Positions 6,993-17,705 of a stretch of 26,271 nucleotides of DNA are shown here, piece by piece. The stretch spans positions 1 through 26,271 of the forward strand of contig JAKAFF010000001.1 in NCBI GenBank assembly GCA_021818045.1, in the 5' to 3' direction. Position 1 is the stretch's first letter, and each line of letters opens with the position of its first letter. Position numbers and translations under genes: made by a program. This stretch comes from a bacterium (GTDB taxonomy: Bacteria > Chlamydiota > Chlamydiia > Chlamydiales > SM23-39). A model generated the notes under the pieces. That model was not told the DNA's origin. It did no database searches and saw nothing but the letters and a program-made list of their open reading frames with translations.

Positions 6993-7700
6993 ATGGAAAA
7001 GAAAAGACTTAGTAAAGCTCTCGCCGCGGCAGGAATTGCCTCTCGGCGCGCCTGTGAAGAGCTGATCTTTCAAGGGCGTGTGCAAGTCAACGGCACGACG
7101 ATCAAGCAACCTCAACACCACATCGACTGGCACATGGACCGCATTACCGTCGATGGGACAGCGATCAAAGCAGAGCAGAAAAAAATTTACTACATCCTCA
7201 ACAAGCCATCAGGGTATCTCTGCACGAATGTACGTCCTGGGAAAAGAGCCATCGTGCTCGACCTATTTCCCGACTCTCAAGAGCGGCTCTTTACCGTTGG
7301 CAGGCTCGATCGCGAAACGACGGGATTGCTCCTTGTGACTAATGACGGCCACTTTGCCAACCAAGTGATCCACCCCTCCTCCAACATCATCAAAGAATAC
7401 ATTGTCAAAACCACCTCTGAAATCACCCCAGAGCACCTCGAATGCCTCTCTCAAGGGGCCCGCGTCGATGAAAAATGGGTACGCCCCGTATCTGTGCACA
7501 AAGTGCGCCGCGGCACATTTCGCATCTGCGTGAAAGAGGGGAAAAAGCACGAAGTGCGCATCATTGCAGAGAGGGCCAAACTCAAAGTCATCGAATTGAC
7601 GCGCGTGCGCATTGGCGGTCTTGTTCTCGGTCCACTGCCTGTAGGAGAGTTTAGAAAATTGACAGAGGAAGAAAAGCAGCGCATTTTCCAGCATAACTAA
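6993..7700 (+). CDS. rluB: rRNA pseudouridine synthase, RsuA/RluB family
   Basis: N-terminal S4 domain (RLSKALAAAGIASRRACEELI); LNKPSGY; catalytic VGRLDRETTGLLLVTNDG; EGKKHEVR. The exact subfamily is inferred. Confidence 0.9.
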   Translation: MEKKRLSKALAAAGIASRRACEELIFQGRVQVNGTTIKQPQHHIDWHMDRITVDGTAIKAEQKKIYYILNKPSGYLCTNVRPGKRAIVLDLFPDSQERLFTVGRLDRETTGLLLVTNDGHFANQVIHPSSNIIKEYIVKTTSEITPEHLECLSQGARVDEKWVRPVSVHKVRRGTFRICVKEGKKHEVRIIAERAKLKVIELTRVRIGGLVLGPLPVGEFRKLTEEEKQRIFQHN

Positions 7701-7718
7701 GAAAAAATGCGAGCCCGG

Positions 7719-9446
7719 TCAATAGCTCAATAAGAGCCCCAAATGAAACTGTCCAAATCCTAGCCTTATTTCCCGTGCAGCAGCATTGTTGGTAAAAAGT
7801 TGATGCAACTTAAAACCGTAATCGATCCGGGCTTGCAAATAAGGATTAATCGTATAGCGAATACCAGGACCGACTCCCATAAGGTACTGTGTATGAGGTG
7901 GTGTTGCGATTCCTGTAATTTTCTGAACAAACCAATTATTCCCCAACCCATAATCCCAAAATGCAAGAAATATTAATTGATCCCCCACCGATCGCCAAAG
8001 ACTAATTGGCAAAGAACGCAACTCCACATTTACAATCAATCCATTATCTGTACTTAACTCTGCTTCATGATACCCACGTATCGTGTTGTACCCACCCAAA
8101 TTGATTAATTCTGTCGAAGGAAGGGTATCATTGGAAACTTGCCCACGAAGCAACACAGAAATAGTCATGATATTGGGCAAGGTAATGACATCCGCTGCAG
8201 TAATAAACGCATAACAATACTGATTTTTCGAATTAGGGCGCAGAAGACCAAAATCTTGATTAGACTGATGGGGGAGCAAAGCCCCTGGTGATCCATAGAA
8301 ATCAGCGCTCGCTATAATGTCATGTACACTCACCTTCTGTCGCATCGTATAATTAGCGTAAAACTGCGTAACATTCAAATTACTCATTACAGGAGGGCCA
8401 ATGAGTTGTGTTTCCACCACTCCCCCAGACAAAGATACTGTGTTACTATTGGTGTTTTTATATTCAAACCCAAAGCTAATTTCTTGAGAAAAGGGGGTAT
8501 ACATCGGCTTAATAGGAATTGTATAGTGCAAATAAGCCTGTGTTGCATGAGCAGTCATGGCGTGAGTAGGTGGGACGTCCGGCTCTGGAGGAATCTTCGG
8601 GTTGACTTTAGCGTAACTACCGAATAACAGCAAAAGGTGTTGCCAAGGTAAAAAAGAAGTATAGGCCCCCATGTAAGATTGATACCGCATAAAATCGTTC
8701 GAGCAGTCATACTCAAAGGTAAGCAAATCTCCTCTCCACAGCGCATTGCCCCAGGAAAACCCCCCGGCAAATCTTCCATATCCAGTGGAAGCAGACCCTG
8801 TGTCATCAGCCCTGGTATACCAGCGCAGCGGACTTCTGGCAGTGGTGGTGACTTCCAGGTTTGAAACTCCCGGCTCCTCTGCAGGGACAAACGATGTCGT
8901 AGAATAATGAAACGGATTTCTATTGAGCCAAGATAGATTATTCTGCAGCACATCTTCAGAAATTTCTTGATGAGGCACAATACCCAAGTATTGACTTAAC
9001 TGTGCATCAGTATACCATTGTTGGCCCTTGTAAATGTACACAGGACGTCCAAACTGCTGCTTTAAAACAAGAATTTGCAAAACCCCTTCTACGGTAGATT
9101 GCTTAGGCATCTCGATGTCTACTAGCAATTGTTGGTGCTTTTGATAGTAAAGAAGAACTTGTCCTTTGATTTCAATGGCAGTATCTAAATTTAATTTCCT
9201 GCCTAAATACGGCTTCAATAAAGCTTCCAATTCCTCAGGCTTTCCTGGGATCGACAGGTCTTGAATCTCTACTCCTTGAATATCAGACCGTCCTCCAGCA
9301 TGAATATTTTTGGGGTTACTTGTAATCAAAATACCACGAATATCACTCGGCGTTCCTGGCTTTTTATGAGCCAGCGCGAGCTCTGCAGACGCAGCAAACA
9401 CCTCCAAACGCACCAACACCATCAAAAATACGATCCACTTAGCCAC
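7719..9446 (-). CDS. ShlB/FhaC/HecB family (TpsB/Omp85) outer-membrane secretion protein
   Basis: POTRA-like segments (LKPYLGRKLNL...YYQKH; LSWLNRNPF); Omp85 loop-6 motif TIRGY; amphipathic beta strands; C-terminal aromatic (LLLSY). GTG 9446 gives a clean signal peptide (MAKWIVFLMVLVRLEVFA) and an 8-nt overlap with the FecR gene. ATG 9476 is an alternative start. Confidence 0.9.
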   Translation of the reverse strand: MAKWIVFLMVLVRLEVFAASAELALAHKKPGTPSDIRGILITSNPKNIHAGGRSDIQGVEIQDLSIPGKPEELEALLKPYLGRKLNLDTAIEIKGQVLLYYQKHQQLLVDIEMPKQSTVEGVLQILVLKQQFGRPVYIYKGQQWYTDAQLSQYLGIVPHQEISEDVLQNNLSWLNRNPFHYSTTSFVPAEEPGVSNLEVTTTARSPLRWYTRADDTGSASTGYGRFAGGFSWGNALWRGDLLTFEYDCSNDFMRYQSYMGAYTSFLPWQHLLLLFGSYAKVNPKIPPEPDVPPTHAMTAHATQAYLHYTIPIKPMYTPFSQEISFGFEYKNTNSNTVSLSGGVVETQLIGPPVMSNLNVTQFYANYTMRQKVSVHDIIASADFYGSPGALLPHQSNQDFGLLRPNSKNQYCYAFITAADVITLPNIMTISVLLRGQVSNDTLPSTELINLGGYNTIRGYHEAELSTDNGLIVNVELRSLPISLWRSVGDQLIFLAFWDYGLGNNWFVQKITGIATPPHTQYLMGVGPGIRYTINPYLQARIDYGFKLHQLFTNNAAAREIRLGFGQFHLGLLLSY

Positions 9447-10257
9447 AGGCAGGATTCCCTTGTGATGCAGGCACATGTAGCCACTCTCCCTCCTTTTCAC
9501 TTGCCTTTTCAGGAGACCGTGGAGATTGCATAGGCTTAGTTTTTGCAGATGGCGGATTAGGCTTTACTTTTGCTGAAGAAGACTTAGGCACCATATACAT
9601 CGACCGTCCTTCTATCTTGCTTTGAGCTCTCTGCACAGACTCTCCCCCCACAGGAGGAGCAAAGTTCAACTCAGTAAACACTGCAGGAGCTGTGGTCTCT
9701 GGTTTGCCAAGCTCTGAGTACGACATAGCAGAAACATACATACCAGAAGAAAGTTCCACTGAACCTGCCGCATTATGCACAATAACCGTTCCAAAAACAG
9801 TGCCCACATTCAGCTCCCCATCTTGAAAAAAAGCATCAAATATTGTGCCACGAATCCCAATTGTTGCAACCGGCGTGGTGACTTGATAACCACCAGGGTT
9901 CTGTTTACCAATATTGCCTGTCATAGCTCGAAAACCACCCTCAAATAAATCGACCGCAATATCTTGTTTTTCATCACTAAAAGAATAACTGCTGATGCGG
10001 TACACGGTGTTAGGCAATAAATTCACCAAGCCCTCATCCGTAAATTTCAACTGTATTTTTCCATCAGGCCCTGTAGTAAGCACATCTGCAGTAAATAAAG
10101 CAGCGCCTCGAAAAAGCACTCTTTTTGTATCCTGTAATTGGTTCGTTGCCACTACCGTTCCCTGTACAGCAACTACATGCCCGCATACTGAGGCATCTGA
10201 AGCAAACAAGTACAAGGCGTTCCATGTCACAAATACAAACGACAAAAACCATCTCAT
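9439..10257 (-). CDS. Secreted FecR-domain protein with Pro/Ser/Lys-rich tail
   Basis: Signal peptide MRWFLSFVFVTWNALYLFA; FecR pattern DVLTTGPDGKIQLKFTDEGLVNLLPNT...VTTPVATIGIRGT...GTVFGTVIV. Confidence 0.87.
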   Translation of the reverse strand: MRWFLSFVFVTWNALYLFASDASVCGHVVAVQGTVVATNQLQDTKRVLFRGAALFTADVLTTGPDGKIQLKFTDEGLVNLLPNTVYRISSYSFSDEKQDIAVDLFEGGFRAMTGNIGKQNPGGYQVTTPVATIGIRGTIFDAFFQDGELNVGTVFGTVIVHNAAGSVELSSGMYVSAMSYSELGKPETTAPAVFTELNFAPPVGGESVQRAQSKIEGRSMYMVPKSSSAKVKPNPPSAKTKPMQSPRSPEKASEKEGEWLHVPASQGNPACG

Positions 10258-10453
10258 GCTACAGACATAACATACAGAATCCCTTTCTTGTCAACCACAG
10301 GCTCACTTCAATCACACAATTCTTTTTTGGCACTCAAGCGTTGAGCATACCGAAACAGCTTGAAGAATCAGGAATGAAAGATAGTCTCTTGTGCTCTATT
10401 GGGTACGAGAACTGGTCAAATCGGGTTTGTATGGATAAAGCAAGGGACAGGAC

Positions 10454-10582
10454 ATGCAAGATCGCAAGCGACATGATGGGCAAAATAAATTTAGTGAGAT
10501 AACGAAAAAGATTGTGGGATGTTGCTTCGATGTATACACATTCGATTGTTCTGTCATTTTTCTAATTTTTTCTTGCACATAA
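10454..10582 (+). pseudogene. 5' remnant of a GxxExxY-family gene (42-codon ORF)
   Basis: ATG 10454 encodes ...FSEITKKIVGCCFDVYT, like the GxxExxY N-terminal helix (ELTxxIIGxAFEVYN). Similarity stops before the GxGxxExVY motif. Confidence 0.5.
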
Positions 10583-10623
10583 AAACCGCCTTCCCCAAAC
10601 TGTTCAAAAAATTATGAGGGTCT

Positions 10624-11913
10624 ATGTTATTTCGCGTCTCCATGTTTCTTTTTCTTAGCTCCCTAGTTGGCGCTGCTGACCTAGTCTATGTAGGCAACAA
10701 AAATGCGGGCACAATCTCTGTCATCGATTCTTCTATCCAACAAGTCATTGCCACAGTATCTCTGGGGGGCCTTCCTTCTGCAATAGCGATAGGCATCAAT
10801 CAAGCACAGGCATACGTTGTAAACACTGCTAATAATAACATATCCGTTATCGACACCACTAACCAATCTGTCACTGCAACAATCGCGGTCGGCAACGGCC
10901 CCTCTGCAATTGCTATCACTCCAGACAACCAATTCGCCTATGTATGCAACACTTCTAGCAATTCTGTATCTGTAATCAGCACAGCCTCGCAATCAGTAAT
11001 CGCAACAATCAACGTGGGAACCGGCCCTTCTGCAGTAGCTACAAACGGCACCCAAGTTTACGTGACGAATCAGCAAGACAATACCGTGTCTGTCATCAAT
11101 ATTGGAAGCCAAACAGTAATTGCAACTCTTTCCGTTGGCACATCCCCTACATCAGTCGCGGCCACTCCCAATGGCTCTCAAGTCTATGTCGGCAATCAAA
11201 ATAGTATTTCCGTTATTAACACCAACACACTGGCGGTCACTTCAATTAGCATCAATCCTTACACCGGCAGCGCTCTTGTAATTACCCCTGATAGCAGCTT
11301 TGTCTACGCATGTTCCTACAATGATGGTATCGTTGAAGTCATTCGAGTGTCCTCTCAGAGCGTGATCAGCACGATTAATGTAGGCGGATTTGGAGCGGGC
11401 ACAGATGCGATGATCATTTCTCCAGACGGATCTTCTGTGTATGTTTCCAACGGCGACTCAAGCTCTGTTTCAGTAATCAGCGTCGCCTCTCAAAGCATTG
11501 TTGCTACAATCAGTCTTGCAGTAGGCGATACGCCAGCTGCCCTTGGCATAACATCCAATGGTTCGCTGATATATGTAGCAAGCAGCAACACCAATAATGT
11601 GCAAGTTTTTAACACAAGCAATTATAGTTTACTCACAACGATCCCTGTCGGCAGTTATCCGGGCGTCATTGGAGTAGCAGCCCCCAATGCAGCCTCCGCC
11701 CTCAGCGCTAATGGTTCTGCTATCACTGCGACACAGCAAAGCCTGCAACTCACAAACTCTGCTACGGCCAATGCACTTAACGATGTACAAACGACAGGCA
11801 TTTTTTCTGCAGCACAAGGAACTTTCCCCGACTTACTCAACCCTCATATAATTGACAATTCAGTACCGTACACTCAGGAAACTAATTTACCCCCTGTATG
11901 GTGTTCTCATTAG
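10624..11913 (+). CDS. Secreted YVTN-repeat beta-propeller protein (YncE-like) with about 75-aa C-terminal tail
   Basis: Signal peptide MLFRVSMFLFLSSLVGA; GAGGG SD; eight YV-x-N...SVI repeats; Ser/Thr/Asn-rich. Confidence 0.93.
   Translation: MLFRVSMFLFLSSLVGAADLVYVGNKNAGTISVIDSSIQQVIATVSLGGLPSAIAIGINQAQAYVVNTANNNISVIDTTNQSVTATIAVGNGPSAIAITPDNQFAYVCNTSSNSVSVISTASQSVIATINVGTGPSAVATNGTQVYVTNQQDNTVSVINIGSQTVIATLSVGTSPTSVAATPNGSQVYVGNQNSISVINTNTLAVTSISINPYTGSALVITPDSSFVYACSYNDGIVEVIRVSSQSVISTINVGGFGAGTDAMIISPDGSSVYVSNGDSSSVSVISVASQSIVATISLAVGDTPAALGITSNGSLIYVASSNTNNVQVFNTSNYSLLTTIPVGSYPGVIGVAAPNAASALSANGSAITATQQSLQLTNSATANALNDVQTTGIFSAAQGTFPDLLNPHIIDNSVPYTQETNLPPVWCSH
10681..11676 (+). repeat. 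Eight tandem YVTN protein repeats of about 40-44 aa
   Basis: VYVGN, AYVVN, AYVCN, VYVTN, VYVGN, VYACS, VYVSN, IYVAS, each followed by (S/E/Q)V(I/F) and a tI.vG..P-type linker. Confidence 0.88.
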
Positions 11914-11977
11914 CGCTCTCATCTTCCTTAACTGATGCCATTTTTCATCAAGATGTCTTTGATGAGTTTCGCCGAGC

Positions 11978-12006
11978 TTGTCAAAAAATTTTGAGAAACT
12001 TAAACT
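11978..12006 (+). promoter_or_regulatory. sigma66-type promoter for the CaaX gene
   Basis: TTGTCA (11978-11983) - 17 nt - TAAACT (12001-12006). Confidence 0.55.
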
Positions 12007-12036
12007 GCGGCGTTGTTTTTCCCAAATAGGCAAATT

Positions 12037-12837
12037 ATGACATCTCGCATTCAAAGTGGGCCTTTTGCAGCGACGCCTCCTTCTCCAGAACCGCAGGCGA
12101 CGGGATTGGCGCCTTTTGCTAATTGGGAAGATCCGAGAGGCACTCTAACCCTCGTCAAATCTGCTCAGACTGCGGCTCAATTAGCAGGACGCGTGAATGC
12201 ACAGGATGGTTTTGTTAAAAAATATGCGCTCTCCGCAGATTGTCAGCGATTGATGGACCAATTTTATAGAGAGCGAATTACAATTGTCATTGATGATAGG
12301 AATGCAGCAGAGTTTCAAGGGGAAAGACTCTTCCTTCGCGAGCTTTCTCTCATGCTTTTGGAACTTGCTAAAGTGCGCGGCCGCGGCATTACTCTCAGAT
12401 TTTTGAGCGAAAAGAACAGTCAGGTGTTTGAAGAGGAAGCTCTCTTGCGGGCCGCGTTTACCCCTCAAGCTCGTGCAGGTAAGGAGGGAGCTTCTCTAGC
12501 CAACGCGCTGAGGCAGTTGCACAACGCTGCGGAAGACGCTACTGTTTTGATCATCCCTGTAGTGACTGTTCCCCTGCCTCACGAGGATGACGCTCTCCAA
12601 CAATTTCTAGGCGATCGCCAAAGGGATGCGAGAGGACACATGTCAAGACCCATCCGCTTTATGCCACGTGCGGAGGCGGCTTTTGCGTATTGCCAGACGC
12701 TCGCTGGAGGAGACATTACTGTTTTCGCAAGGGACGATCGGGCCTCGAAGGGAGAGGCGGTTGTGAAGATTGCGCTAGAGCCTTTCTTCAAGAATCCCGA
12801 ATCGCGCCCAGCCGCTAGCTGCTGCGCGATTCAATAA
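12037..12837 (+). CDS. Hypothetical protein (266 aa), vWA-like alpha/beta core, C-terminal CaaX motif; candidate secreted effector
   Basis: ATG 12037 preferred over TTG 12013. Ser/Thr/Pro-rich N-terminus; ITIVIDD...GITLRFLS; ends AGC TGC TGC GCG ATT CAA TAA = SCCAIQ*. Confidence 0.83.
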   Translation: MTSRIQSGPFAATPPSPEPQATGLAPFANWEDPRGTLTLVKSAQTAAQLAGRVNAQDGFVKKYALSADCQRLMDQFYRERITIVIDDRNAAEFQGERLFLRELSLMLLELAKVRGRGITLRFLSEKNSQVFEEEALLRAAFTPQARAGKEGASLANALRQLHNAAEDATVLIIPVVTVPLPHEDDALQQFLGDRQRDARGHMSRPIRFMPRAEAAFAYCQTLAGGDITVFARDDRASKGEAVVKIALEPFFKNPESRPAASCCAIQ

Positions 12838-12842
12838 CAACT

Positions 12843-12944
12843 TATACACAAATGAGTTCAAAAGTTGGTTTTTCGGCTGCGCCAAAGCGGCGCAATTTAC
12901 CTATCGCGTTACCCAAAACCAACTTTTGAACTCATTTGTGTATA
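12843..12944. mobile_element. 102-bp MITE-like palindromic element with TA ends (ERIC/RUP/Correia-like class)
   Basis: Perfect 30-bp inverted repeats TATACACAAATGAGTTCAAAAGTTGGTTTT at 12843-12872 and 12915-12944; 42-nt spacer with internal hairpin TGCGCC-AAAGC-GGCGCA (12878-12894). Confidence 0.78.
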
Positions 12945-13007
12945 GGCTCGATGTGCGATTTGTCGGCAGCTTTCACGCAGCTTAAATGTGAAGTTATTTA
13001 TTACATT

Positions 13008-13016
13008 TGGTATAAT
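13008..13016 (+). promoter_or_regulatory. Extended -10 promoter for DUF47-pit
   Basis: TG-G-TATAAT, a perfect extended -10, ending 27 nt before ATG 13044. Confidence 0.55.
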
Positions 13017-13043
13017 TTTTCGATTCGTGTAACATCCCTGACA

Positions 13044-13721: not shown

Positions 13722-15137
13722 ATGGACCCATTCACCCTCATCCAGACCCTGGCCCTGCTTCTCGGCTTCTACATGGCTTGGAATATCGGCGCAAATGACG
13801 TCGCAAACGCCATGGGCACCTCTGTGGGATCGCGCGCCCTTTCCCTAAGGCATGCTGTCATTCTCGCTGCCATCTTAGAGTTTTCCGGAGCTTTTTTTGT
13901 AGGATCTAGCGTCTCGCAAACCATCCAAAAAGGGATCATTGACACATCCCTCTTCCAAGCAGACCCCTGGACCTTTGTCCTTGGCATGATGGGATCGCTT
14001 CTTGCCACAGGTTTGCTTTTGCAAGCGGCCTCTTACTTTGGCCTTCCCCTCTCCACAACTCACGCAATCGTTGGATCGGTCGTCGGCTTTGGATTGTGTG
14101 TTGCGGGCATCCACGCCATCCATTGGCAAGAGCTCGCCTGGATCGCCTCCAGCTGGATCCTCTCACCGCTCCTGAGCGGCCTTGTCGCCTATGCGATCTT
14201 CTCGATCATCCAAAAAAAGATTCTCTTTACCTTAAACCCCATCGAAGCCGCCACAAAACTCACCCCCGCTCTCGTTTTTTTATGCTTTAGCGTCGTCACA
14301 CTCAGCTTAGTATTTCACGGCCTGCACCTCGACCTCTCCTTCACCCACGCCATCTCCCTTTCTTCCTGTGTAGGACTGAGCGCTGCCTCCGTGAGCCATC
14401 TTTTAGTCAAACGCAAATACCAGGCAACGCCGCAGCTTGCCTTAGGATTGCAGTTACACCAAGCCATCAGTCTTGAAAAGGCGCTCTACCACTTACAACG
14501 CGTGCATCTTTCCAACCAAGCGGGCGCCCATGCACAAGAAATCTCCCAAATCCTACACCAAATGCATCAACTCAACGACACCGTGCGAAAAAGCTCCCCC
14601 CTTCTCCAGTCGGCCACTCCTTATCACAGCGTAGAGCAAATCTTTATTCCCCTCCAAATCCTCAGCGCATGCCTCGTGGCTTTTGCTCATGGAGCCAACG
14701 ACGTTGCCAACGCTATAGGCCCCGTGGCCGCCATCGTCGGCGTCTTCCAAACACACGCCATCCCCACCCACTCTCCCATTCCTTCATGGCTTTTGGCACT
14801 TGGCGGCAGCGGCATTGTCATCGGTCTTGCGACCTGGGGATGGCGCGTCATCGAAACAGTTGGCAAGAGGATCACAGAGCTCACTCCAACGCGCGGATTT
14901 TCTGCGGAATTTGGCGCAGCGCTCACCATCCTTCTCGCATCCAAACTTGGCCTTCCCATCTCCACAACACACGCCCTCATTGGGGCGGTGCTAGGTGTTG
15001 GCCTTGCAGGCGGCATCAAAGCCCTCAACTTACAAACCCTCAAAGAAATCGTCATCTCTTGGGCAGTCACAATTCCCCTTTGTGCACTCGTTAGCATCCT
15101 GGCCTTTCACGCTTTAAAATTGTGCATCAAAATGTAA
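13722..15137 (+). CDS. pit: Inorganic phosphate transporter, PiT family
   Basis: Two signature motifs, GANDVANAMGTSVGS and HGANDVANAIGP; duplicated P(L/I)STTHA; multi-TM. Confidence 0.96.
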   Translation: MDPFTLIQTLALLLGFYMAWNIGANDVANAMGTSVGSRALSLRHAVILAAILEFSGAFFVGSSVSQTIQKGIIDTSLFQADPWTFVLGMMGSLLATGLLLQAASYFGLPLSTTHAIVGSVVGFGLCVAGIHAIHWQELAWIASSWILSPLLSGLVAYAIFSIIQKKILFTLNPIEAATKLTPALVFLCFSVVTLSLVFHGLHLDLSFTHAISLSSCVGLSAASVSHLLVKRKYQATPQLALGLQLHQAISLEKALYHLQRVHLSNQAGAHAQEISQILHQMHQLNDTVRKSSPLLQSATPYHSVEQIFIPLQILSACLVAFAHGANDVANAIGPVAAIVGVFQTHAIPTHSPIPSWLLALGGSGIVIGLATWGWRVIETVGKRITELTPTRGFSAEFGAALTILLASKLGLPISTTHALIGAVLGVGLAGGIKALNLQTLKEIVISWAVTIPLCALVSILAFHALKLCIKM

Positions 15138-15179: not shown

Positions 15180-17705
15180 ATGAGCCTAGAAAGTCAAGCA
15201 GACGACCTCGTCCAAAAGATTAAACACCTCATCATCACCTCGAGCGGCCATACGGCAAAAGATGCGACCATCGGGGAATTTTACCGCGCTTTTTGTGAAG
15301 CTTTACGAGAAGAGATCATGGTCAATATGACCGCGACCATCGACACGATGCTTTACAAAAAGCCACGGCTTCTCAATTTCTTATCCATGGAGTATCTCCC
15401 TGGCCGGTTGCTCGGCAACAATATCCGCAATATGGGAGGTAAAGAACTCACACAACGGGTATTGGAAAAAATGGGAAGAAGTTATTCCGATCTCATCCAT
15501 TGTGAAAGCGATCCAGGGCTTGGCAATGGGGGGTTGGGGCGGCTGGCCTCCTGTTTTCTGGAATCGCTTGCAGCTTTGCGCTATCCAGCGCGCGGCTATG
15601 GCCTGCGCTATCAGTATGGCATTTTTGAACAAGAGATCTGGAATGGGATACAAATGGAGCGTCCGGATCGCTGGCTAGTCAATGCAGATCCTTGGGAATC
15701 GAGGCGAGATGCTTTTTCTGTAAGCGTATTATTAAGCGGCCAAGCAGTCCCCAAGACAAATAGCCATGGGGAGGAAGTTTATGATTTAGAAAATTATGAA
15801 GAGGTGCGCGCCTTACCCTTCGACATTCCCATCTTAGGCTATTCCGAACAAGCAGACTACTCGGTATTGCTACTGCGCCTCTGGTCGACAAAGGAATCTC
15901 CTCGCAATTTTCTGTTACAGCGCTACAACTCGGGATTTTTAGATCAGGCATCAGAAAACACCTCTTTAACTGACGTCTTATATCCCAACGACAACAACGA
16001 ATTGGGCAAAAGAGTACGCTTAAAGCAGGAATTTCTCTTAGTGTCCGCCTCATTGCAAGACATCATCAGGCGCCACCTTCGCGACTTTGGCAATTTAAGC
16101 CAATTTGGCGACAAAGTGCGCATTCAGATCAACGACACCCATCCCGCGATGACCATTGCGGAGCTCACCCGCATCCTCGTCACCCACTATGACTTTCCTT
16201 GGAATACGGCTTGGGAAACATGTCAAATGGTATGTGGATACACCAACCACTCCATCCTACGCGAAGCATTAGAGGCGTGGAATGAAGGGCGTGTGCAAGC
16301 GCTCTTGCCGCGTCAATATCGCATCATCCAAAAGCTCAATTGGGACTTTTGTACTGCAGTCCGCGCCCGTTTTCCAAACGATGAGGAAAGAGTGCGCCGC
16401 ATGTCGATCATTGAAGACGGGCAAATTCGGATGGCGCATCTGGCGATCTGCGGCTCGCACAAAGTCAATGGGGTTGCAGCTTTACACACGCAAATTTTAA
16501 AGACGAATATCTTCAAAGATTTTTATGAGATGTACCCAGATCGCTTTGTCAATGTGACCAACGGCGTGGCTCACCGCAGATGGCTCTATGCGGCAAACCC
16601 CCTACTTGCAGATTTCATTACAAAACGGATCGGCAAAAAATGGGTTCTAGACTTTACAGAGATTGCAAAACTATCTCAATTTGCCTCAGATCCTGCATCG
16701 CAAGATGCGTTTTTGGAGATCAAGAAGAAAAACAAAGAGGCCTTCCATCAATTTCTCACTGCAGAAAGCAGCATCCGCGATGCTACAGGCAAAGTGATCG
16801 CGCACTCCCATATTCTCGATTCCTTGTCCCTTGTGGATGTGCAAATCAAGCGCATTCACGAATACAAAAGACAATTACTCAATGCCCTGCATCTCATCAT
16901 GCTCTATCAAGAGATTCGCAACAATCCGGCTGCAAGACCCCTGCATCGCCTCAGTGTATTTGCAGGAAAAGCTGCCCCTGGCTACAAAATGGCCAAACAA
17001 ATCATCCAACTCATTTGTGCGCTTTCCCGAAAGTGCCATGCAGATCCTGTGGTGAAGAACTATCTTTGTGTAGCCTTCGTTGAAAATTACAACGTATCGA
17101 GAGCGGAAGTGATTATCCCTGCAGCAGATCTATCGGAACAGATCTCAGCTGCTGGGTGGGAAGCATCGGGCACCGGCAATATGAAACTTGCCATGAATGG
17201 CGCGCTCACTATTGCCACAGATGATGGATCCAATATAGAGATGCAAGCCGCCGTCACAGATCGTTGGTGGCCCTTTCGATTTGGGGCCAGCGCTGAGGAA
17301 AACCAAAAACCCTATAATCCTTGGGACATTTATTCTCAGGACGAAGCGATTCGACGTGCGGTGGACACGCTCAATGACGACACCTTTGCTCAAGGACTTG
17401 AAGAGTCAGAAAGCTTTAAAAGCATCTACCAAAACCTCACACAAGGCGATCCTTACCGAGTGTTACAAGACCTGCGTCCCTATTACCAGACGCAGCAAAA
17501 AGTGGAAGCACTCTTTTCAAAACCACGGCTTTGGGCAGAAAGTGCTCTACACAACATCGCTGCAATGGGGAACTTTTCTGCAGACGCATCGATCCACAAC
17601 TATGCGAAAAAAGTCTGGGATATCACCCCTTGTCCTATCGACCCCGCGATTTTGCAAAAAGTCAGAGACGAATATTCGGAGCACGATCGCTGCAAAATCA
17701 AATGA
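15180..17705 (+). CDS. glgP: Glycogen/alpha-glucan phosphorylase
   Basis: DPGLGNGGLGRLASCF, GYGLRYQYGIFEQ, LYPND, QINDTHP, YTNHS, QIKRIHEYKRQLLN, PLP-lysine motif EASGTGNMKL. Confidence 0.98.
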   Translation: MSLESQADDLVQKIKHLIITSSGHTAKDATIGEFYRAFCEALREEIMVNMTATIDTMLYKKPRLLNFLSMEYLPGRLLGNNIRNMGGKELTQRVLEKMGRSYSDLIHCESDPGLGNGGLGRLASCFLESLAALRYPARGYGLRYQYGIFEQEIWNGIQMERPDRWLVNADPWESRRDAFSVSVLLSGQAVPKTNSHGEEVYDLENYEEVRALPFDIPILGYSEQADYSVLLLRLWSTKESPRNFLLQRYNSGFLDQASENTSLTDVLYPNDNNELGKRVRLKQEFLLVSASLQDIIRRHLRDFGNLSQFGDKVRIQINDTHPAMTIAELTRILVTHYDFPWNTAWETCQMVCGYTNHSILREALEAWNEGRVQALLPRQYRIIQKLNWDFCTAVRARFPNDEERVRRMSIIEDGQIRMAHLAICGSHKVNGVAALHTQILKTNIFKDFYEMYPDRFVNVTNGVAHRRWLYAANPLLADFITKRIGKKWVLDFTEIAKLSQFASDPASQDAFLEIKKKNKEAFHQFLTAESSIRDATGKVIAHSHILDSLSLVDVQIKRIHEYKRQLLNALHLIMLYQEIRNNPAARPLHRLSVFAGKAAPGYKMAKQIIQLICALSRKCHADPVVKNYLCVAFVENYNVSRAEVIIPAADLSEQISAAGWEASGTGNMKLAMNGALTIATDDGSNIEMQAAVTDRWWPFRFGASAEENQKPYNPWDIYSQDEAIRRAVDTLNDDTFAQGLEESESFKSIYQNLTQGDPYRVLQDLRPYYQTQQKVEALFSKPRLWAESALHNIAAMGNFSADASIHNYAKKVWDITPCPIDPAILQKVRDEYSEHDRCKIK

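Follow-up and report, generated by a model that had tools for sequence, protein, structure and literature searches.

A gene of 266 codons in the genome of an environmental, as yet uncultured chlamydia, recovered from a mine-drainage metagenome, encodes an orphan protein that may be a type III effector, delivered into the host cell and farnesylated there by the host, a reading to which we give somewhat less than an even chance. The gene lies in a window of 26,271 nucleotides (the whole stretch of DNA that was analysed; contig JAKAFF010000001.1 of assembly GCA_021818045.1, lineage SM23-39 of the Chlamydiales) and was singled out in an earlier interpretation of the DNA letters, referred to below as the sequence-only reading. 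Its product would be a three-part soluble protein comprising a disordered N-terminus, a von Willebrand factor A (vWA) core and, as its third part, a short tail that is flexible and has CC-AIQ at its end. The proposal draws on the two ends of the protein, each carrying a rare feature independent of the other: the N-terminus whose composition is the most similar to a type III secretion (T3S) signal in the genome, and a canonical, exposed Cys-aliphatic-aliphatic-X (CaaX) box. Both are predicted if the protein is a host-prenylated effector.

The producer had been assumed to be a chlamydia with a T3SS (type III secretion system), and the genome agrees with this. The metagenome-assembled genome (MAG; 1.3 Mb, 84% complete, 47% GC) encodes the T3SS export gate SctV/FHIPEP (656 bits), besides five or more NTT (TLC) ATP/ADP translocases, and the nearest relatives of the proteins encoded by conserved neighbouring genes belong to Chlamydiota/Parachlamydiales MAGs. 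Judged by SctV, the NTT transporters and these relatives, the organism lives inside cells and has a secretion system directed at its host.

The description of the N-terminus, MTSRIQSGPFAATPPSPEPQAT, as being of low complexity was borne out by composition. The first 25 residues rank first among 979 crude proteins of the genome for Ser, Thr, Pro, Gln, Asn and Gly content minus hydrophobic content, and the segment is among the least hydrophobic N-termini of the same set. This composition is typical of T3S signals and is suggestive of such a role. The claim that the protein lacks a Sec signal also held, the maximum Kyte-Doolittle value over 15 residues being 0.62 within the first 40 residues; having no signal peptide, the protein does not qualify as cargo exported by the Sec/two-partner secretion route through the neighbouring TpsB. 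No transmembrane segment was found along the protein, where the maximum Kyte-Doolittle value over 19 residues is 1.18 and is located on the predicted beta-4 strand; by the same measure the bilobed hydrophobic domain of approximately 40 residues that marks chlamydial Inc proteins is absent. Next in the genome for T3S-like composition of the N-terminus comes a 1412-amino acid open reading frame (ORF) on another contig (C125:9571-13809 of G000), which has a Cys-rich end (...GCESCQ) and may be another effector candidate.

The C-terminus SCCAIQ was found as described, ...RPAAS-C262-C263-A-I-Q266 being followed directly by TAA, and the CaaX box begins exactly four residues from the end. CAIQ fits the classical CaaX rule, Gln as the final residue favours farnesyltransferase (FTase), and canonical boxes of the FTase type are usually modified once they are in the eukaryotic cytosol. 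Between the predicted fold and C262 there is a polar linker of 10 residues, the structural alignments ending at residues 251-256, which would leave the box exposed. A secreted type III effector could also work without lipidation, its CaaX-like ending being incidental, inaccessible or unrecognised by the natural host. The effector-like traits are common to this explanation and to the proposed one, and the lack of any statistical excess of CaaX endings in the genome is in its favour, whereas the canonical FTase-type box on an exposed flexible tail is against it; we consider it unlikely.

The frequency of such endings was determined in a crude set of 1057 ORFs, with 40 control offsets providing the expectation. 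Any Cys at position -4 was observed in 17 ORFs (14.2 ± 3.6 expected), a classic CaaX in 2 (1.8 ± 1.2 expected), and a classic CaaX with an FTase-type final residue, C[AVILM][AVILM][SMQACT], in the orphan gene alone (0.55 ± 0.59 expected). The proteome-wide enrichment that had been named beforehand as a check was therefore not seen, all counts being at chance level. Of two housekeeping genes just downstream, that for the PiT transporter (13722-15137) encodes a protein ending in CIKM and that for glycogen phosphorylase, glgP (15180-17705), one ending in CKIK; since these two carry them, CxxX endings arise readily by chance in this genome.

These counts favour the principal alternative, in which the protein is an ordinary bacterial one that is not secreted, has a vWA-like fold of diverged sequence, functions within the chlamydial cell and ends in CCAIQ by chance, an ending that would never encounter a prenyltransferase. 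Besides the chance frequency of the motif and the CxxX endings of PiT and GlgP, this explanation can draw on the abundance of vWA proteins in the bacterial cytoplasm and envelope; VWA_2 occurs in 47 of 120 sampled Chlamydiota genomes. An extreme, disordered N-terminus, orphan status and a location in a variable slot would, however, be unusual for a housekeeping protein, and the properties of the predicted core described below also speak against it. We regard this alternative as possible, on balance doubtful.

Residues 72-256 probably adopt a vWA fold. For the exact sequence an ESMFold model is available in the ESM Atlas (pTM 0.67, pLDDT 0.65), and all 10 structural neighbours listed for residues 72-256 are of vWA type, with TM scores normalised by the query of 0.66-0.79 over 171-182 aligned residues; their Pfam families are mostly VWA, VWA_2 or Ssl1, with one Rpn10, and the feature score for the region is 0.91. 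Neighbours of the full-length model, by features and structure, comprise VWA, VWA_2, vWA-TerF-like/copine, Rpn10, Ssl1 and a few unnamed clusters. The three-layer alpha/beta Rossmann-like arrangement of a vWA domain is thus seen in predicted models only. AlphaFold2 run without an alignment gave pLDDT values of 36 for the full length and 41 for the core, which are uninformative and no evidence against the fold, and a Foldseek search of the PDB with this weak core model returned noise only (TM ≤ 0.2). Immediately before the core, residues 32-71 resemble Pfam PF17863 (AAA_lid_2) below threshold (E values from 0.006 down to 0.0017 and scores of 16.7-18.5 bits, the cut-off being 22.7). AAA_lid_2 followed by vWA is the order found in proteins of the ChlD/BchD type, and the resemblance could either be noise or have been left by an AAA+/vWA ancestor of larger size.

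The metal-ion-dependent adhesion site (MIDAS) of the fold appears to have lost four of its five positions in the orphan protein, with only the first Asp kept. For comparison, a profile was built from 21 chlamydial DUF58/VWA_2 proteins, none of which departs from the MIDAS residues D, S, S, T and D. In the register given by hhalign (P 0.099), D86 aligns with the invariant Asp, R88 and A90 stand at the positions of the serines and A152 at that of the Thr. The register is not significant, yet it is the one that a vWA fold predicts. Read directly, the sequence has no acidic residue after beta-4. Loss of the MIDAS does not exclude the fold, since vWA domains without it exist; having lost the site, the core would bind proteins independently of metal. 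As the MIDAS is conserved in the vWA partners that have housekeeping roles in bacteria, its loss favours an effector over the non-secreted alternative, as does its invariance in the chlamydial set. A vWA partner of a MoxR ATPase (RavA-ViaA, NorQ-NorD or BatA type) was rejected as an identity for the protein: no MoxR (AAA_3) protein was found above cut-off in the 84% complete genome, the best match reaching 16.9 bits against a cut-off of 27, and no MoxR gene is adjacent, the neighbours being a beta-propeller gene and the pair PhoU_div-PiT. This absence likewise counts against an ordinary bacterial role. Paralogy with the single borderline VWA_2 protein of the genome (C101) was considered and none was found.

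The ORF is a genuine coding gene. It runs from an ATG at 12037 to a TAA at 12835-12837 and encodes 266 amino acids, as first reported, and in three public records gene callers working independently chose the same start. A weak AGG Shine-Dalgarno sequence precedes the ATG by 6 nt. A log-odds score for codon usage, for which 509 long ORFs of this genome served as training set, was 0.211 in the annotated frame and 0.08 or less in each of the remaining five; the mean for the genome is 0.237 ± 0.069. The promoter TTGTCA-N17-TAAACT previously claimed for the gene is present and sensibly placed, as a consensus match only; a 1.45-kb region contains five promoter-like sites, where shuffled sequences gave 1.1 ± 1.4. 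The gap to the upstream beta-propeller gene is 123 nt, no terminator was found in it, and the two genes may be co-transcribed.

The gene is an orphan and strain-restricted. A word-indexed search of 5.8 billion protein clusters with the full length, the C-terminal half and the middle part, and an exhaustive phmmer search of 1.84 billion representatives, each returned the protein itself and nothing else. No homologue was found in the genomes of 40 relatives, nor by tblastn (E ≤ 10) in the genome itself or at 57 Chlamydiota loci of shared synteny; scans of contigs from metagenomes and genomes with the back-translated protein recovered only the gene itself, the PDB gave no match by sequence (E ≤ 10), and neither Pfam nor NCBIfam placed the protein in a family above cut-off. 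Three other public records contain the gene with DNA that is 100% identical and comes from the same study. The ENA, NCBI and Logan copies were for this reason rejected as independent populations.

A related strain is represented in a second sample of the same mine-drainage study (run X2) by a 304-nt contig fragment that covers 12170-12472 at approximately 93% identity, with 20 differences and no indels. The 12 differences listed individually fall in 10 codons, five of them changed synonymously, including a two-step change of CGC to AGA that retains Arg, and five non-synonymously (K61H, R78K, T82A, G115D and E125A). Half of the changed codons are therefore synonymous, where approximately 23% would be expected of random single changes. 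The synonymous excess and the native codon usage indicate that the frame is read and is under relaxed purifying selection. In the neighbouring beta-propeller gene the ratio of synonymous to non-synonymous changes is 5:1, compared with 5:5 in the orphan gene, which on this small sample evolves faster. The X2 sample also contains a beta-propeller fragment covering 11264-11497 at approximately 97% identity, and since both fragments were found there, the gene pair is present in at least two diverged populations.

The same comparison bears on whether the ORF is non-functional or decaying, either a spurious frame or the remnant of a larger AAA+/vWA gene of the ChlD or MoxR-associated type. Such an origin would account for the absence of a family, the sub-threshold AAA_lid_2 segment ahead of the vWA-like core, the position in a variable region beside a repeat resembling a miniature inverted-repeat transposable element (MITE) and a non-synonymous share above that of the neighbouring gene. 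Against this, codon usage is typical of the genome in the annotated frame only; the frame is intact, with no indels or stops and with an excess of synonymous changes in a strain that has diverged by 7% at the DNA level; a complete globular fold is predicted; and the MITE-like repeat lies outside the ORF. Decay is consequently very improbable.

Weighed together, the orphan status, fast divergence, location in a variable slot, absence of a Sec signal, transmembrane segment and MoxR partner, and loss of the MIDAS are counted in favour of the protein being an effector. A number of results weigh against the proposal that it is a host-farnesylated one. No T3S chaperone gene is adjacent. The CaaX motif is not enriched in the genome and cannot be told from chance; the fragment from the related strain ends 120 codons before the C-terminus, leaving no homologue that covers the box, and the protein is known from the population of one study only. 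No RNA run is listed as containing the gene, and two metatranscriptomes of the same study (X3 and X4), both small, yielded nothing at the locus, a result that says nothing either way. For the core, no VWA family of Pfam was matched even at E ≤ 10, a genome-wide search with VWA_2 and vWA-TerF profiles did not match the locus, an unfiltered hmmsearch (--max) of the chlamydial VWA_2 profile gave a non-significant 0.9 bits, and the hhalign comparison with the 21 chlamydial proteins was likewise not significant. The fold rests on one language-model prediction of medium confidence. The vWA-like core with a degenerate DxSxS put forward in the sequence-only reading is accordingly upheld in part, by the ESMFold model and its structural neighbours, and finds no support in any sequence profile.

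We infer the secretion, prenylation, acylation, membrane tethering and binding function of the protein as follows. The N-terminus would direct export through the chlamydial T3SS into the cytosol of a protist host, where host farnesyltransferase would modify C263. Host Rce1 would then trim -AIQ and host Icmt would methylate the new C-terminus, and C262 might be S-acylated in addition. The vWA module, tethered by these lipids to a host or inclusion membrane, would bind a host protein there. The locations of the features on which this scheme draws are given in Table 1, together with those of the surrounding region.

Table 1. Features of the orphan gene and its surroundings, with positions in the window.
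Feature	Position	Strand	Basis or remark
Orphan gene, 266 codons + TAA	12037..12837	+	ORF, codon usage, related-strain comparison
Residues 1-31, Pro/Ser/Thr/Gln-rich, of low hydrophobicity, probably disordered	12037..12129	+	Composition; outside most structural alignments
Helical segment, residues 32-71	12130..12249	+	Sub-threshold AAA_lid_2 resemblance
Predicted vWA fold core, residues 72-256	12250..12804	+	ESMFold model and structural neighbours
Residues 81-90, ITIVI-D86-D87-R88-N89-A90: putative beta-1 and DxSxS remnant	12277..12306	+	hhalign register, not significant
GITLRFLS: putative beta-2			hhalign register
G-A152-SLANAL: putative MIDAS-Thr helix			hhalign register
TVLII: putative beta-4			hhalign register
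Flexible polar linker, residues 252-261, KNPESRPAAS	12790..12819	+	Sequence
C262 (possible S-acylation site) and CaaX box C263-A-I-Q266	12820..12834	+	Sequence
Promoter-like site TTGTCA-N17-TAAACT	11978..12006	+	9/12 consensus positions; end of the -10 hexamer 31 nt ahead of the ATG
Palindromic MITE-like repeat, 102 bp	12843..12944	.	30-nt perfect inverted arms; begins 5 nt past the stop
Variable slot	7700-13038		5.3 kb; TpsB, FecR-domain gene, secreted YVTN beta-propeller gene, orphan gene
RluA-like gene	6993-7700		Conserved left border of the variable slot

In relatives of the same genus the gene order is conserved on both sides of the slot, with cysteine-desulfurase-like, His_Phos_1 and RluA-like genes followed by PhoU_div, PiT and GlgP. 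The distance from the RluA-like gene to PhoU_div varies, being 0.3-2.3 kb in five relatives and 3.2 kb in a sixth (L019), and the contents of the slot differ between relatives, in which an MFS transporter, an unrelated 315-amino acid protein, a cyclase-like protein or TpsB may be found. The secreted YVTN beta-propeller gene (10624-11913) has an unusually low codon adaptation of 0.103, the 5th percentile for the long ORFs used in training being 0.116, and the FecR-domain gene scored 0.142; these values are a hint that part of the slot was perhaps acquired recently.

The MITE-like repeat downstream of the gene folds as RNA with an energy of -55.3 kcal/mol and could act as a hairpin at the end of the transcript. 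Matches to its arms number 158 and are spread over 76 of the 176 contigs, and for 35 matches the end of the contig is within 200 nt; the depth of its words is 2639, compared with approximately 7 in the flanks, and the element is also present in the second sample. This dispersed repeat probably explains the fragmentation of the assembly. Creation of the stop codon or of the CaaX box by the element was rejected, the stop codon lying 5 nt upstream of it.

Host prenylation is used by 7-11 of approximately 368 Legionella effectors and by SifA and GtgE of Salmonella (PMC4951486, PMC13081727, PMC13423502). A functional CaaX is present in approximately 2-3% of Legionella effectors (PMC13081727, PMC4951486), roughly ten times the chance rate measured in the present genome. 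With Legionella AnkB, PelA-K/CMPs and bacterial R-SNAREs, and with SifA and GtgE, the orphan protein has in common an intracellular, protist-associated producer with a secretion system, the lack of a transmembrane segment and a CaaX box after a flexible linker (PMC4951486, PMC13081727, PMC13423502, PMC9546365); as in SifA, the neighbouring Cys could be S-acylated. It differs from the Legionella proteins in belonging to another phylum and in its presumed use of a T3SS rather than Dot/Icm, and from the Legionella and Salmonella effectors in its cargo, a predicted vWA fold instead of an F-box/ankyrin, SNARE, WEK or protease domain. The Legionella CaaX proteins have been confirmed experimentally, whereas the orphan protein is a candidate from sequence.

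Outside bacteria, a Cys preceding the prenylated Cys is also found in the CC-a-a-X proteins, among them the PRL phosphatases (CCIQ/CCVQ) and RhoB (CCKVL), which are farnesylated or palmitoylated, the final residue of PRL-1 being Gln. These proteins are unrelated to the orphan protein and the likeness extends over no more than five residues. A literature search for CAIQ as an exact box gave no relevant paper. The searchable literature, which covers the field in part and so offers no proof of absence, contained no vWA-fold effector and, in agreement with the sequence-only reading, no characterised chlamydial CaaX effector.

Among the nearest structural neighbours of the core are intracellular vWA modules of eukaryotes that lack the MIDAS, namely the N-terminal domain of Rpn10/PSMD4, Ssl1/p44 of TFIIH and the copine A domain, together with small vWA proteins of the stand-alone kind from eukaryotes and giant viruses (TM by query 0.68-0.79), all of similar size. 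The Rpn10-type vWA is a protein-protein interaction domain that needs no canonical metal site. The orphan protein shows no detectable sequence similarity to these proteins and lacks the partner domains (UIM, C2 and zinc finger); the resemblance is one between predicted models on both sides, and the taxon labels of the Atlas are no evidence of gene transfer. The DUF58/BatA-type VWA_2 proteins of bacteria, which occur in MoxR operons and in many Chlamydiota, probably have the same fold, with beta-1, beta-2, the MIDAS-Thr helix and beta-4 in register. They retain D, S, S, T and D and their MoxR neighbours, whereas the orphan protein preserves the first Asp alone, lacks a MoxR neighbour and scarcely registers against their profile. 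A further-reaching form of the effector proposal is a membrane-tethered, metal-independent vWA scaffold that environmental chlamydiae would inject into their hosts; the protist would farnesylate, and perhaps palmitoylate, it, and by mimicking intracellular eukaryotic vWA modules like those of Rpn10, copine or Sec23 it would capture its partner in the host, either on the inclusion or on some other membrane of the host. The protein would then be the first effector with a vWA fold, and in the Chlamydiota the first CaaX effector that is open to experiment; taken as a whole, this picture is improbable.

The orphan protein is small and soluble. Its weakness as a subject is that it is an orphan of a single population with a key motif indistinguishable from chance, and for these reasons it is a lower-priority candidate than families with a conserved CaaX tail. 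Chlamydiae live in the same protist hosts as the bacteria, Legionella and Salmonella, for whose effectors the hijacking of host prenylation was demonstrated. If the protein is indeed farnesylated by its host, the hijacking of host prenylation would extend to another phylum, another secretion system and a new cargo fold, that of vWA.

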